This document shows, in pieces, positions 15,001 through 27,000 of a DNA stretch of 64,000 nucleotides. This DNA comes from a plasmid. Position numbers: made by a program. Position 1 is the first letter of the stretch. Each line of letters begins with the position of its first letter. The DNA is taken from the NCBI RefSeq assembly GCF_056746865.1, contig NZ_JBWKMP010000004.1; one strand, written 5' to 3'.

Positions 15001-18000
15001 GGAGGCCGCCTGTCAGCCCGCGCGAAAACCCCTGGCAGGCTGACGCCTGCCGGAAGGGAAGCGGGCCACGCTGGCGCGTCGCCCGTTACCCTTCCCGTCT
15101 GTGATGTGTCTGACTCAGGAGTGTTTCTTTCTTATGTTATGGAACTGTTCCTGATGTTGTTGTTCCTTTATCTACTGCTCTGATTCTGACTACTGCAGTG
15201 TTGTTCTGTCTGCCGGGCGCACCTTCGGCTCCCGGCTGCCTGGCGGCATCCGGTCGTCAGGCCCGACTCCGACAGGCAGCTGCTGGCGCACCTGCCAGTC
15301 TCCGCCGAACCCGCTGGCGCGGTTTCGGGCTGCCGCTACGGTCCGATGCGTGAAAACCCCTGGCTTGCAGCGACCGTTCCGGTCGCGCCGCCTCTGTCGC
15401 GCCGTGGCCTGCGCTCCCGGCATCCCGGCAAAAGGCCGCCGGGATGTAAGGGGCAACGCCGTTTCGCGCACGCGCTCTCCGTCGTTGCGGCGGGCCCCTG
15501 CTCATTGCCTGCCGGGTGCCACACACCCGTATGAGTCCCTGTCGCCGGGGGCATAGACAGCCACAACCTGCCGCACTGACTGTCCAGGGTAAATGAACAG
15601 CCCACAAAATTTTTTACCCAAAAACCGGTAAAAAATTTTGCGTTCTGCCCAGGACAGGTGCGTCAGGCCGTGGCAGTGATGCCCCTTGCGGCGAAGGTTC
15701 TCAAACGGGTGAAGTTCATACCACAGGGAATACAGCAGCAGGTTCCCGCGAAACGTCAAAACCGCGGCTCCCGAAACTCAACGGGTGATGTTCTTTAAAA
15801 ATCAGGATTTATTTCAGGCTCCGGCAATACGCATTTATTTGTTCTGTCAGTCATCCGGCTGGCAGGTAATGAGAACGCAGGAACAGAAGGAGGAAAACAC
15901 CGGAGAACGTCAGACGCAGATATGAAAAAAGCAGGCCGGGGAGGACCTGCTTAATCCACACCGCAAAAACTGTTCGAGCAGTTTCTGCGGTTCCATTCAA
16001 CAGTCATAAGGAGTTTCATTTATGACGGTAAGTATTGTTTCACCTTCCGCAGCGGCTGTAAAGCCCCGCCGTCATCCCCGTTTCAGACGCGAAGACATCC
16101 CCGCGCCGGAAATTGACCCCGTGCTGAAAGCCTTCGGGCGACACATTGCCCGGAGTTTTCACCGGGGACGTGGTGTACACATCCCCGCCATGAAAAATAC
16201 GGCTTTCGGGCAGGTGCTCCGCACACTCGAACTGAAACGCGCTTTTAACTGATGAGGTGAGCCGCCCCGCGAGGGGCGGCAACAGACGGAAGGAGAACAT
16301 TTTATGACATTAGCTGCAATCACCATGACCGCCCCGGAAGCCGCCAGCCCTGTGCAGATGTACCGCGCGACCTACTCACCGGATGACAACAAACTGCGCC
16401 TGTATGCCGCGTCACGTCTTGACCCGGAGACGTATAAAAAAGTGCATGATGCCGGTTTCCGCTGGGCACCCAGACAGGCGCTGTTTGTCGCGCCAGCCTG
16501 GACACCGGGCCGGGAAGACGTGCTCCTCTCACTTGCCGGAGAGATTGAGGATGAAGACAGCACGCTCGCTGAACGTCAGGAAGCACGGGCGGAGCGGTTT
16601 ACCGGATACAGCGGAAAGCGGGCCAGTGAATCCGCACAGGCACTTGATGAAGTGGAAAGACTGGCCGCGATGATCCCGCCCGGTCAGCCCATTCTTGTGG
16701 GGCATCACAGCGAACGCCGCGCCCGTCGTGATGCGCAGCGTATTGAAAACGGCATGAAACGTGCCGTGATGCTCTTTGAACGTGCGGAATACTGGGAAGA
16801 ACGGGCGCGGTCGGCACTGCTTCACGCGAAGTATAAAGAACGCCCGGACGTTCGCTGGCGTCGTATCAAAAAAATCGAAGCTGATTTGCGCAAGGCTGAA
16901 AAGACCATCGCACAGTCGCAGAAATATCTGACGATGTGGCGGGCTGAATCGCTGGATCTGAATATGGCAAAACTCATCAGCAGTCATGACCATATCAGCG
17001 CCTGTTTCCCGCTGGATACGTATCCGCGCCCGGCAGAAAAAAGCCAGTATGAAGGGAGCCGGTCGTTATGGTCGGCCCTGGATGATGACATCATCACCAC
17101 GGAGCAGGCCCGCGAAATTGCGATCCGCTGTCATGAACGGCAGATTCAGCATCAGCAACGCTGGGTTAACCACTATCAGAACCGCCTGATCTATGAGCGT
17201 GCCATGCTGGACGAAAGCGGCGGCGTGGTTACCCGGACACAGGATTTTGAGCCGGGCGGACAGGTTTTCAGCCGGGGCGAGTGGCTGACTATCATCCGCG
17301 TGAACAAAAGCAACGGGGCGGTGAGTTCAGTCACAACGCCAAATTACAGTTTTCTCGGGTACAGCGGCACGATGAAAGTGACGCCCGATCGCATCACGGA
17401 CTACAAAGCACCATCGGCAGAAGAGGCTGCCGTCGCCAGTCAGGCCGCGAAGCGTCCGCCGGTAGTCAACTATCCGGGGGAAGGTTTCCGGGAAATGACA
17501 AAGGCGCAGTGGGCCGCCCTGCCCCGGGACTGTAAGGCCGTGCGCAGTGTGGAAGAAGCAGAAGACCACGGGGCATACCGCTACCGCCGCACAATGGACA
17601 ATAATTTCCGTCTGGTGAATGTGTATATCACCGACATGAAAATCACGGAAATCCCACAGAAATAAGGTATATCCCCCCGGGAAATCCCCGGGGGATGACG
17701 GAGATAATGATATGCACAGTCAGTTAAGAGAACGTATCCGGCTGATGCGCGCAAGGCTGGATAACGCCGCGCCGGTTGCTGAAATCCGGGCTGAATCTCA
17801 GCTTTTTGTGAGTCCTGCCCCGATCTGTGATCGCCTGGTGACGCTGGCGGAAATCAGCAACCGTGATCACATTCTGGAACCCTCTGCCGGCACCGGGGCC
17901 ATACTGCGGGCGATTCGGGATACCGCGCCGGAGGCCATGTGTGATGCGGTGGAGATTAACAGCGGGCTGGTCCGGTATCTGCGGGAAAATTTTAACGGTG

Positions 18001-24000: not shown

Positions 24001-27000
24001 GATTACTGCTGCCCTGATTATTGTCTGTTTTGTTGTTCTCCTGCTTATGCCTTTTCCGGGCGTCCCCCTGGCGGGGCGGGCTGTCGTGAACGGAGCCAGC
24101 GAAGCTGTCTCCGCCCTGGCGGGCTTCCATCCCTGACGCAAAAACCCGGGTTTGCAGCGACCGGAACGGTCGCGCCACCCTTGTCGCGCCGTGGCCTGCG
24201 CTCCCGGCATCCCGGCAAAAGACGCCGGGATGTAAGGAGCAACGCCGTTTCGCAAACCGCGCTTCACGTCGTTGCGGCGGGTCCCTGCCCGTTGTTCTGT
24301 CCGGTGCCATTCACCTGTTTAAGCCCCTGTCGCCGGGGGCATAGACAGCCACAACCTGCCGCACTGACTGTCCAGGGTAAATGAACAGCCCACAAAATTT
24401 TTTACCCAAAACCCGGTAAAAAATTTTGCGTTCTGCCCAGGACAGGTGCGTCAGGCCGTGGCAGTGATGCCCCTTGCGGCGAAGGTTCTCAAACAGGTGA
24501 TGGTGAATACCGGAGGGAACAAAAGGCAGGTCCCCGCAAAACGTCAAAACCGCGGCTCCCGAAACTCAACAGATGATGGGGGCTGAAAACATCAGATACA
24601 GGAGGAATTATGAGCGCATTTTCTTTTAACACCACTTATCAGCCAACAGGCGATCAGCAGAAAGACGCAATCGCACAAATCGGGATCATGCAGAATCGTG
24701 CTGTTCAGGCAAATCTTGCATATCAGAGCTGCCGGGATTCTGGTGCACTCTTTAAGGTGCTCCACCAGGTCAATAATGAGCTGCATGACTTACTGGATAG
24801 CCTGGAGAATCATACTCCTCTTGTCAGAAAAAACGCTGATGAGTTGATCGCGCTGTTACTGCTTTTCACTCGGCAGGTTGGTCAGTCCCGAACTGACCTG
24901 ATTTGATGGTCCTTCCCCTCGGAATTGTTGTCTTTTTGTTAACGATAACCGAGGGGGGATGATATTAAGCGAAAAAACTTTTATTAATTTTATGCCTTCA
25001 TAAAGGAGTTACTGTTATGCGATTAGCTTCCCGTTTTGGTCGATATAATTCTATTCGCCGTGAGCGCCCGTTAACGGATGACGAATTAATGCAGTTTGTT
25101 CCATCTGTCTTTTCTGGTGATAAACATGAATCCCGGAGTGAGCGTTATACATATATCCCAACCATCAATATCATCAATAAGTTACGTGATGAAGGTTTCC
25201 AGCCATTCTTTGCCTGTCAGAGTCGGGTTCGTGATTTGGGACGCCGCGAATACAGTAAACATATGTTACGTCTTCGCAGGGAAGGGCATATTAACGGGAA
25301 AGAAGTTCCTGAAATTATCCTGCTTAATTCACATGATGGTTCATCCAGTTATCAGATGATCCCAGGAATTTTTCGTTTTGTCTGCACAAATGGCCTGGTG
25401 TGTGGGAATAATTTTGGCGAAATCCGCGTTCCACATAAAGGTGATATTGTCGGGCAGGTTATTGAGGGAGCGTATGAAGTGCTCGGTGTCTTTGATAAAG
25501 TCACTGAAAATATGGAGACAATGAAAGAGATACATCTTAACAGTGACGAACAACATTTATTTGGCAGAGCTGCATTGATGGCCAGGTACGAAGATGAAAA
25601 TAAAACGCCAGTGACGCCAGAACAAATAATTACTCCCCGCCGTTGGGAGGATAAACAGAACGATCTCTGGACAACCTGGCAGCGGGTTCAGGAGAATATG
25701 ATAAAAGGTGGATTATCGGGGCGAAGTGCCTCCGGTAAAAATACCAGAACAAGAGCCATTACAGGCATTGACGGTGATATCCGAATCAACAAAGCATTAT
25801 GGATGATTGCCGAACAGTTCAGGGAGTGGAAGTCATGATAATATAAGTAAAGCCCCGAAAAATTTTTCGGGGCTTTACTTATATTATCATCCTGCGGCAT
25901 TGCTGTGTCGTCTGATATGCCTCAATTTCATCAACTGGCTTTTCGGTAGTCTGTAAATATTGTGCCCGCGAAAAATGGTCTGGCAGGAGGCTGCGCAGTT
26001 ACCGGATATATATAAGATGGGATCCCGCTTTGCGGGGCTTCGGCCAGTCAGCATTATCACTCATATGATATTTTTGTGTGTGGCCTTCCATGCCGCTGTC
26101 GCGGCATAACCGGTATTTGACAATGTATACAATATTAATTTTTCTGCACACTGTTAATTTGGGAAAGTGATTTCTTCGTGGTCGGAACCCGGATGCCTTT
26201 ACTGCTCTTTATCCAGGTATAAATCCGGTAAACCTCTGATGCGTAGGCAAGACGTCTCTGGTTCTGGCGTTCGGTCTTCCTGAATCCGGCATTGTATGCA
26301 CCAACGGCCTCCCAGGAGACGCCCCATTTTTTAAAGGCTATTGCCAGATAATAAGCACCGGTATAAATGTTCATACAGGGATCTGTTGTCAGATGTTCCG
26401 GCTTAATTCCATAGCGGGCCAGTTCGTTAAAATGCTGGGAATCTACCTGCATCAGTCCGCTGCCATATCCCGTTACCGGATTAATACCGATGGCATTAAC
26501 CCGGTAACGGGATTCTTTCCATGATATCGCTCTCAGTAAATCCGGGTCTATTTTGTAATCCCGACCTGCAAGATCAAAGCAATCGGCGGCTTCGCAGATC
26601 CCATTTATAAACATCAGGCAGATTGCTAACATCCATTTTTTCATTTTTCCACCTCTGGTGACTTTATCCGTAAATAATTTAACCCACTCCACAAAAAGGC
26701 TCAACAGGTTGGTGGTTCTCACCACCAAAAGCACCACACCCCACGCAAAAACAAGTTTTTGCTGATTTGCTTTTTGAATCATTAGCTTATGTTTTAAATA
26801 ATGTATTTTAATTTATTTTACATTATTAAATAGGGGCGTTGACGACCCTATGGCGACCCTATGGCGACCCTTGTTAGGGTCAGTACTGACAAATTTTATG
26901 AAAAACATTTGGATATATTAGGGCCGCCCCTAGCAGCGCCGTGCGTTTTTTTATAGTATGCCCCTAGGGGCGCTGCTAGGGGTGCTCTTCTTTTTTCAGA

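Follow-up and report, generated by a model that had tools for sequence, protein, structure and literature searches.

Introduction

The leading region of the plasmid studied here carries three copies of a long repeat, each placed before a block of genes on the + strand, and the question raised by this arrangement is whether the repeats serve as promoters on the single strand that enters a recipient cell. The stretch of DNA analysed (64 000 nucleotides, referred to below as the window) represents an IncFII/F-like resistance plasmid, and plasmid pT156A is 100% identical to it over the region. The three repeats are read here, with a probability of about 0.9, as class-1 ssDNA promoters of the Frpo/ssiD (ssp1) family in an IncFII/F-like leading region. 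Within the window the basis of this reading is homology, strand, position and a stable, evolutionarily maintained hairpin; promoter and primer activity and zygotic induction are attributed to the repeats by analogy with published work on F and ColIb-P9. The feature itself is known, both the promoters and the risk of recombination between them being already in the literature (PMC9849209, PMC3817090). Through Frpo-type promoters, SOS-inhibition and anti-defence genes are expressed at the time when a resistance plasmid arrives in its next host; such promoters therefore matter for plasmid spread, which is established biology.

Repeat copies and downstream genes

Copy 1 was located at 15353–15790, copy 2 at 18533–19118 and copy 3 at 24009–24594, all assigned to the minus strand. 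Copies 2 and 3 agree at all 586 positions without a single mismatch, the identity ends at both edges and the spacing between them is 5476 bp; copy 1 shows 89.1% identity to copy 2 over 441 bp. The three copies listed in the preliminary description were thus recovered, with the start of copy 1 corrected from 15346 to 15353. The length and identity of the repeats cannot have arisen by chance. When copy 2, flanks included, was compared by BLAST with all 64 kb of the window, the repeat itself matched solely the three leading-region copies. An Rfam search of positions 10000–32000 placed no family over the repeats, its matches being the traJ 5′ UTR, FinP, sok and AS-pc01.

Each copy precedes a gene block on the + strand, as had been claimed. 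The end of copy 1 lies 231 nt before the ATG at 16022 that opens block 1 (16022–18275, + strand), which consists of a 76-residue ORF, a DUF3560 protein (16304–17665, + strand; Pfam DUF3560, 1.1e-36) and an SAM-dependent DNA-methyltransferase-like protein (17712–18275, + strand; PHROG DNA methyltransferase families). Copy 2 ends 17 nt before the ATG of ssb at 19136, a start supported by a ribosome-binding site; a further in-frame ATG upstream of it, at 19097, falls within the repeat. Block 2 (19136–23695, + strand) contains ssb, a DUF905 gene, a ParB-like gene that is a split yfjB homologue, psiB, psiA and hok/sok (sok, RF01794, at 23363–23539), and is the segment flanked by the two identical repeats. 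The ATG at 24610, separated by 15 nt from the end of copy 3, opens block 3 (24610–25838, + strand), which consists of a ygeA-like ORF of 98 residues followed by a DUF932 (ygeB-like) gene.

Nic site and transferred strand

The oriT nic-site sequence GGGTGT/GGTGCT was found as an exact match on the minus strand at 26730–26741, with traM, traJ and FinP close by on its right. Because the nic sequence sits on the minus strand, the transferred (T) strand is the minus strand, as the preliminary description had proposed, and this strand is the template for the + strand genes of the leading region. The distance from nic to the repeats is 2.1–11.4 kb, and they lie on the side that is the first to enter.

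Homology to the F and ColIb-P9 elements

The F ssiD sequence (D90178, taken from Supplementary file 4 of PMC11541004) was used as a reference. On the minus strand its identity is 88.2% to copy 2, 88.2% to copy 3 and 78.8% to copy 1 over 340–355 nt, the aligned length being 340 nt on copy 1 and 355 nt on copy 2. All copies can be aligned with the Frpo1 region and the Frpo2 region of F. Copy 2, the positional homologue of F Frpo2 before ssb, shares 92.9% identity with the Frpo2 region; copy 3 is the positional homologue of F Frpo1 before the ygeA-like gene. The two F elements, Frpo1 (ssiD; ssp1a) and Frpo2 (ssp1b), share with the present repeats homologous sequence, the same strand and the same long hairpin. 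There are, however, differences between the plasmids: F has two Frpo copies whereas the window plasmid has three, of which copies 2 and 3 show 100% identity to each other over 586 bp, while Frpo1 and Frpo2 are 86% identical in the present alignment (92% according to PMC9849209). The apex of copy 3 is of the Frpo2 type, unlike that of F Frpo1, and the F leading region does not have the DUF3560/methyltransferase module that is headed here by copy 1.

Similarity to the ssi elements of the IncI1 plasmid ColIb-P9 is confined to an 81-nt apical stretch of the repeats, at about 80% identity. This core, common to the IncF Frpo and IncI1 ssi elements, lies on the minus strand at 18894–18973 in copy 2, with equivalents on the same strand at 15582–15661 in copy 1 and 24370–24449 in copy 3. 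In copy 2 it comprises an A/T-rich apical stem, the hexamer TTGTGG (18914–18919) and an unpaired 8-nt bulge, TTCATTTA, at 18902–18909; GACAGT (18891–18896) follows immediately beyond the matched core. The class-1 ssDNA promoters ssi1–ssi3 of ColIb-P9/pESBL are likewise three dispersed repeats, each before a leading-region operon, and both they and the window copies have an unpaired bulge on the 3′ arm of the apical core. Beyond that core the ColIb-P9 stems cannot be aligned with the window copies, and the downstream genes differ. The transcription start sites of the IncI1 elements ssi1–ssi3 have been mapped in vivo (PMC12672017).

A comparison with F ssiE had also been suggested. When the F ssiE sequence (D90180) was compared with the window, it matched at 25952–26140 alone (minus strand, 91.6% identity, single copy) and nowhere in the repeats; the repeats are of the ssiD type, and the ssiE homologue is a separate element. 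In F, ssiE is also a single-strand initiation sequence of the leading region near oriT, AT-richer than the repeats and unrelated to them.

Single-strand structure

Folding of the minus strand, the check suggested beforehand, gave stable hairpins. Each copy forms on the T strand a single long imperfect hairpin of 315–334 nt with about 124 pairs: at about 15435–15768 in copy 1 (apex at about 15619–15626), at 18773–19087 in copy 2 (315 nt, 124 pairs, apex loop 18931–18938) and at 24249–24563 in copy 3 (apex loop 24407–24414). The ssDNA folding energy is −144.9 kcal/mol for copy 2 and −130.6 kcal/mol for copy 1, with z scores against shuffled sequences of −13.4 and −9.0, respectively. The repeats had been described as full of short perfect stem-loops; this holds for a few short GC-rich hairpins in their left, GC-rich part, but the dominant structure is the one long imperfect hairpin.

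In a consensus structure over seven family members, a small sample, which was derived from the same seven-sequence alignment on which it was tested, pairing covers 95.3% of the cells and compensatory changes occur at 12 pairs; no shuffle out of 500 equalled this, and structures slid along the alignment were 38–48% paired. The compensatory changes support the long hairpin as a predicted structure across the family. G–T pairs in the hairpin are invariant. The T strand was more stable than the + strand every time, both in a scan with 300-nt windows and in the folds of the individual copies; the + strand folds nearly as well, so that the active strand is not identifiable from folding energy alone.

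With a cutoff of −75 kcal/mol, the T-strand scan of positions 8000–28000 in 300-nt windows returned five loci: the three copies and, in addition, minus-strand hairpins at 13560–13919 and 10940–11319. Each of the five precedes a block of + strand genes. The two additional hairpins are probably counterparts of the class 2 and class 3 ssDNA promoters (ssp2 and ssp3; 'Frpo3' in one preprint), which are likewise long T-strand hairpins before leading-region operons and have no sequence similarity to the Frpo repeats (PMC12672017; 10.1101/2025.04.03.647016). The published role as a replication roadblock belongs to ssp2 and not to Frpo.

Promoter elements

A scan of 18500–19200 for a duplex σ70 promoter found none. 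Within the stem, three alternative placements of σ70-like hexamer pairs are candidates for the −35 and −10 boxes, all weak (6–8 of 12 consensus positions): TTGAGA-17-CATCAC and TTGACG-17-TTTTGT each agree at eight positions, and TTGTGG-17-GACAGT, which is preceded by an A/T tract, agrees at six. The −10-like bulge CATTTA is conserved with TATCTT of ColIb. The deposited Frpo2-acrIIA4 construct (Samuel 2024, Supplementary file 11), presumed to be the one active in the assay of that study, ends before the complements of TTGAGA and TTGACG. Its end point, together with the restriction of the ColIb ssi similarity to the apical core, favours the apical placement, and the −35 and −10 boxes most likely sit in the core common to the IncI1 ssi elements, a position predicted by sequence comparison.

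Proposed mechanism

In the F plasmid, Frpo1 and Frpo2 are needed for ygeA and ssb/yfjA to be expressed early in transconjugants (PMC9849209), and transient, element-dependent induction has been shown for both (PMC9849209, PMC12672017). Transcription and priming by σ70 RNA polymerase on SSB-coated ssDNA are on record for F Frpo and ColIb ssi3 in work cited in PMC9849209 and PMC7690428. A Frpo-driven anti-CRISPR had to lie on the T strand within the leading region to be active (PMC11541004), start sites of class-1 promoters have been mapped by 5′ RACE (PMC12672017), and conversion to duplex DNA is primed in vivo by Frpo transcripts (10.64898/2026.01.09.698686).

By analogy, the minus strand of the present plasmid would enter the recipient 5′ end first from a nick near 26735, and each repeat on it would fold into the hairpin of about 315–334 nt, the stem of which would imitate a duplex promoter. 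Host σ70 RNA polymerase could bind the hairpin and transcribe rightwards with the incoming strand as template; since the folded incoming strand itself would be transcribed, the DUF3560/methyltransferase, ssb–ParB-like–psiB–psiA–hok and ygeA-like/DUF932 blocks would be expressed ahead of complementary-strand synthesis. The same transcripts could prime this synthesis, and conversion to duplex DNA would remove the hairpins and switch the promoters off. The earlier proposal that the + strand genes can be transcribed from ssDNA through promoter-like hairpins is supported by the ssiD homology, the T-strand folds and the F literature. Zygotic induction by copies 2 and 3 is expected from their position and homology. 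Copy 1 may be active as well, with less certainty. Its stem base has diverged and its 231-nt leader overlaps the antisense RNA AS-pc01, so its output may differ from that of copies 2 and 3.

Alternative explanations

The repeats might instead be mainly priming sites for complementary-strand synthesis, with expression of the downstream genes incidental. Frpo originally came to light as the priming signal ssiD; according to the summary in PMC7690428, Frpo transcripts stay as RNA–DNA hybrids that prime DNA synthesis in vitro; early conversion near Frpo sites is rifampicin-sensitive in vivo (10.64898/2026.01.09.698686); and three dispersed copies would give three priming points on the incoming strand. 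We nevertheless consider it unlikely that priming is the main role, given that the downstream proteins are no longer produced early when Frpo1 or Frpo2 is deleted (PMC9849209) and that placement 15–231 nt before co-oriented gene blocks is not needed for priming alone. Priming and promoter activity are compatible and not mutually exclusive.

Less probable still is that the copies are ordinary duplicated intergenic DNA with duplex promoters or terminators, the hairpins being a by-product of palindromic, terminator-like sequence. Although the left, GC-rich part follows the preceding gene block, its short GC hairpins could terminate upstream transcription and the + strand folds well too, the scan of 18500–19200 yielded no duplex σ70 promoter, a terminator needs neither a 315-nt hairpin with compensatory changes nor invariant G–T pairs that favour the T strand, and the ssDNA promoter to which the repeats are homologous has been defined by experiment. 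If the copies were instead a small, non-autonomous, MITE-like mobile element that has spread in the leading region, this would account for their number and dispersal, for their large internal inverted repeat and for the variation among plasmids in the gene modules found at the repeat positions. We give this origin hardly any credence: the copies differ neither in orientation nor in where they sit with respect to the downstream genes, BLAST matched the repeat within the 64-kb window only to the three leading-region copies, and the variant architectures, with identical flanks, are exactly what homologous recombination between direct repeats would produce.

Recombination between copies

In the duplex plasmid the direct repeats have a secondary role as sites at which homologous recombination or gene conversion removes, adds or homogenizes leading-region modules. 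All of the modules begin with the same promoter of about 450 bp, so that recombination or gene conversion can swap, delete or add modules and homogenize the promoters. The variants shared among the window copies and F Frpo1 and Frpo2 show a mosaic pattern.

Public plasmid records were searched for the complete layout and for each junction, the counts being lower bounds taken from the best 5000 records per search. The three-copy layout was present in at least 1104 records; at least 264 records had the junction of copies 1 and 2, at least 164 that of copies 2 and 3, and at least 21 that of copies 1 and 3. Two of the copy 2/copy 3 records are 100% identical over 2651 bp; one of these, pV021-b, has the junction and does not contain ssb, psiB or hok anywhere, as determined by BLAST and, for the final part, by exact patterns. 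The prediction that recombination between copies 2 and 3 could delete ssb to hok is thus matched by the exact predicted junction in at least 164 records and by the gene content of pV021-b.

A modest addition of this analysis is that all three repeat-to-repeat junctions exist naturally in IncF plasmids, from which it follows that leading-region content is reshuffled at the Frpo promoters. The junction plasmids include apparently conjugative ones (by MOB-suite typing, with a full tra set) that do not carry ssb, psiB, psiA and hok, with a backbone identical over the 2651 bp compared; their loss of these genes in nature indicates leakiness in the hok/flm safeguard put forward for F. We tentatively suggest, as a possibility somewhat short of even odds, that the Frpo repeats are junctions of a cassette system besides being promoters, and that deletions of the hok module might occur preferentially in the course of transfer or shortly afterwards. 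A new recipient has no pool of hok mRNA, so a deletion arising there would escape post-segregational killing. If this is true, preferential deletion around transfer could explain the at least 164 module-less records despite the proposed safeguard. Among IncI plasmids, a natural one from which the 9.7-kb stretch between repeats was lost is on record (PMC3817090).

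Leading-region layout and transferred strand

The window derives from a resistance plasmid of the IncFII/F-like type. Plasmid pT156A (IncFIA/IncFII, MOBF) was 100% identical to it across the 10.9 kb region around the repeats, and this region was found at ≥99% identity in at least 970 PLSDB records. According to the annotation of the identical plasmid, the leading region is of the classic F type with all of its genes on the + strand. A DNA methylase gene, DUF1380 genes and an antirestriction gene precede copy 1 of the repeat (15353–15790), which is followed by a 76-aa ORF, a DUF3560 protein and a SAM-dependent methyltransferase (16022–18275; module 1). 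Copy 2 (18533–19118) is followed by ssb, a DUF905 gene, a ParB-like gene, psiB, psiA and hok/sok (19136–23695), and copy 3 (24009–24594) by a ygeA-like gene and a DUF932 gene (24610–25838). An SLT gene on the opposite strand and then oriT, traM and traJ come after the DUF932 gene. The F-type nic sequence GGGTGT/GGTGCT was located at 26730–26741 on the minus strand, so that this strand would be nicked and transferred 5'→3' toward lower coordinates, in agreement with the preliminary description. The minus strand (T strand) is also the template of every + strand leading gene.

Repeat extent and single-strand fold

Copies 2 and 3 were identical at 586 of 586 positions, with the identity ending at both edges, and lie 5476 bp apart; copy 1 was 89.1% identical to copy 2 over 441 bp. 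The earlier description of the repeats therefore held, as did their placement before + strand gene blocks: the first ORFs start 231, 17 and 15 nt after copies 1, 2 and 3, respectively. The ssb start with RBS support is at 19136, and an in-frame ATG at 19097 falls within copy 2. No repeat copies beyond these three were found in a BLAST comparison of copy 2 and its flanks with the whole window; each copy matched its own reverse complement over about 260–280 nt, as is typical of a large imperfect palindrome.

In ssDNA folding, the minus strand reached −144.9 kcal/mol (z = −13.4) for copies 2 and 3 and −130.6 kcal/mol (z = −9.0) for copy 1, and none of the shuffled controls folded as stably as either, in line with the proposed stable structure. 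Copies 2 and 3 form a single long imperfect hairpin (18773–19087 and 24249–24563; 315 nt, 124 pairs, apex loop GGGTTTTG), and that of copy 1 lies at about 15435–15768. The repeats are not, as had been stated, full of short stem-loops; a few short GC-rich hairpins were seen in the left part.

Covariation was analysed in an alignment of seven sequences (the window copies, Frpo1 and Frpo2 of plasmid F, and Serratia and insect-metagenome Frpo-like sequences from Samuel et al.). The consensus hairpin had 99 pairs with 95.3% of cells paired, falling to 38–48% when the partners were slid by 1–3 columns; 12 pairs changed on both sides, a number reached in 0 of 500 shuffles. As only seven sequences were compared and the structure came from that very alignment, the result supports, without settling, a hairpin conserved by compensatory change. 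Several G–T pairs were invariant, and the T strand was always 3–11 kcal/mol more stable than the + strand (300-nt scan and per-copy folds), which fits selection on the transferred strand.

In a sliding fold of the T strand over 8000–28000 (300-nt windows, −75 kcal/mol cutoff of Wen et al.), only five loci passed: copies 1–3, 13560–13919 (minus strand, −80.1 kcal/mol per 300 nt), directly upstream of the antirestriction (ArdB/KlcA-like) gene, and 10940–11319 (minus strand, −93.9 kcal/mol per 300 nt), directly upstream of the DNA methylase gene. The latter two are probably class 2 (ssp2) and class 3 (ssp3) ssDNA promoters, respectively, as described for F and pESBL (PMC12672017).

Relationship to Frpo/ssiD

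The F ssiD/Frpo sequence (D90178, as listed in Supplementary file 4 of PMC11541004) aligned with the minus strand of copies 2 and 3 at 88.2% identity each and of copy 1 at 78.8% over 340–355 nt. Both Frpo regions of plasmid F align along the length of the window copies, Frpo2 (upstream of ssb) being the positional counterpart of copy 2 and Frpo1 (upstream of ygeA/ygeB) that of copy 3. The ORF ahead of copy 1 in the window is, in F, immediately followed by Frpo2 and ssb; copy 1 and its three genes therefore form an extra module absent from F. The suggested likeness thus held for Frpo/ssiD but not for ssiE, which is unrelated to the repeats: its only homologue is a separate single-copy element at 25952–26140 on the minus strand, between the DUF932 and SLT genes (91.6% over 190 nt). 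With the ssi elements of IncI1 plasmid ColIb-P9, which are proven class 1 promoters, the window copies share only an 81-nt apical core.

The repeats have the testable defining features of the Frpo/ssiD class 1 family (homology, strand, location and hairpin) and do not depart from this already known kind, of which 13,089 homologues in 6,006 conjugative elements have been reported (Samuel et al., PMC11541004). The additions made here are modest: a third copy at the head of a module absent from F, evidence of gene conversion and natural recombinants.

Proposed promoter activity

On entry into the recipient, each repeat on the transferred strand would fold, host RNA polymerase would recognise the promoter-like stem and read the downstream block from ssDNA, and the transcripts could also prime complementary-strand synthesis; conversion to duplex would then abolish the hairpin and silence the promoter. 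For the F and IncI1 homologues, this sequence of steps is established (PMC7690428, PMC9849209, PMC11541004, PMC12672017, 10.64898/2026.01.09.698686). Frpo had promoter and primer activity in vitro (Masai & Arai, 1997, as summarised in PMC7690428), and deletion of Frpo1 or Frpo2 abolished early production of YgeA, Ssb and YfjA (PMC9849209). Anti-CRISPR protection driven by Frpo depends on the T strand and on leading-region placement (PMC11541004), the transcription start sites of class 1 promoters have been mapped by 5' RACE (PMC12672017) and early conversion at Frpo sites is rifampicin-sensitive (10.64898/2026.01.09.698686).

By homology and position, copies 2 and 3 are strong candidates for ssDNA promoters and copy 1 is a good one. 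The ssDNA-promoter reading of the preliminary description was accordingly judged correct on Frpo/ssiD homology, T strand, leading-region location and stable hairpin, with activity argued by analogy. In its apical core, copy 1 is separated from copy 2 by a single difference in the alignment; its stem base has diverged, and the leader that follows it overlaps a match to AS-pc01 (Rfam RF02875, antisense RNA of plasmid pHK01) at 15926–16027 on the minus strand (89.7 bits, gathering score 79). This match lies antisense to the start of the first ORF of the block and could modulate copy 1 output.

A scan of 18500–19200 for duplex-style sigma-70 promoters found none. Three candidate box pairs were considered on the T strand: TTGAGA-17-CATCAC (8/12) lies on the 5' arm, with its −10 at an internal loop, and is conserved across the F-type family; TTGACG-17-TTTTGT (8/12) lies close to the base of the stem; and TTGTGG-17-GACAGT (6/12), on the 3' arm, follows an A/T tract and adjoins an unpaired 8-nt bulge, TTCATTTA, the ColIb-P9 counterparts of which are TATCTT and CATCTC. 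The apical pair on the 3' arm is the more likely on two indirect grounds: the ColIb-P9 elements share only the apical core, and the Frpo2-acrIIA4 construct, as deposited by Samuel et al. and assumed to be the one that worked in their assay, ends before the complements of the other two candidate −35 boxes. With apical 3'-arm boxes, the 5' arm would be the template and RNA would start near 18960–18985, running into ssb.

Recombination between copies

Synthetic junction queries were searched against PLSDB; all record counts are lower bounds from the 5000 best records per search. The full three-copy layout was found in at least 1104 records. The copy 2 × copy 3 junction (methyltransferase, one repeat and ygeA/DUF932 in one contiguous place) occurred in at least 164, and two of these matched at 100% over 2651 bp. 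One of these two, pV021-b, is a complete 71 kb plasmid with a full tra set and just two Frpo copies within positions 1–38589 (BLAST); no trace of ssb, psiB or hok was found in it. The junction anticipated from recombination between copies 2 and 3 thus occurs in natural plasmids. The copy 1 × copy 2 junction, an F-like layout without module 1, was found in at least 264 records (two at 99.6–99.7%), and the copy 1 × copy 3 junction, with one repeat and all between absent, in at least 21. Such junctions may reflect deletion or insertion, as the counts give no direction.

Frpo1 and Frpo2 have already been noted as a recombination substrate, with flm/hok suggested to protect the interval (Couturier et al., PMC9849209), and an IncI plasmid without the interval between Frpo repeats is known (Venturini et al., PMC3817090). 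The survey shows that losses between repeats are common in IncF plasmids, so the hok/flm safeguard is leaky.

At variable sites the copies are also mosaic. On the left, variants of the F Frpo2 type are seen in copy 1 and those of the Frpo1 type in copies 2 and 3; at the apex all three are of the Frpo2 type, from which F Frpo1 differs; on the right, both F elements agree with copies 2 and 3, and copy 1 is the exception. This pattern and the complete identity of copies 2 and 3 (against 86% for F Frpo1 and Frpo2 in our alignment) point to gene conversion between copies.

Other features of the region

Directly to the left of copy 2 is a perfect (CTGCTA)×10.5 hexanucleotide array (18455–18517); copies 1 and 3 have degenerate CT-rich arrays on the same side (15145–15186 and 23970–24020, respectively). 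The matched spans in plasmids with the copy 2 × copy 3 junction (2651, 2639, 2633 and 2627 bp) differ by multiples of 6 bp, which suggests that the hexanucleotide array varies in length among plasmids. An 88-aa ORF (18275–18541) that translates this array as poly-Leu is probably spurious. The RefSeq hypothetical protein WP_071557811.1 (about 15257–15505, minus strand) overlaps copy 1 in its left part. Its equivalents in copies 2 and 3 carry no annotation, and the protein is likely to be a spurious call within the structured noncoding repeat.

The SLT transglycosylase ORF as annotated (215 aa, 26135–26782, minus strand) runs over the nic site; the gene is 45 bp (15 codons) shorter in F and pV021-b, and the start codon may be over-called in the window annotation. 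The ParB-like gene is broken up into two ORFs that differ in frame (20015–21436 and 21463–22038), matching residues 1–461 (92%) and 464–652 (89%), respectively, of the 652-aa F homologue, YfjB in the literature. The split points to a frameshift or a pseudogene in the plasmid; the PLSDB gene table has no CDS over 20015–22038. The methyltransferase after copy 1 (187 aa, 17712–18275, + strand) matches very large phage proteins in their methyltransferase domains (PHROG profiles 1259–3431 positions long, E-values down to 5e-31); these matches hint that module 1 may serve in protective methylation or anti-restriction.
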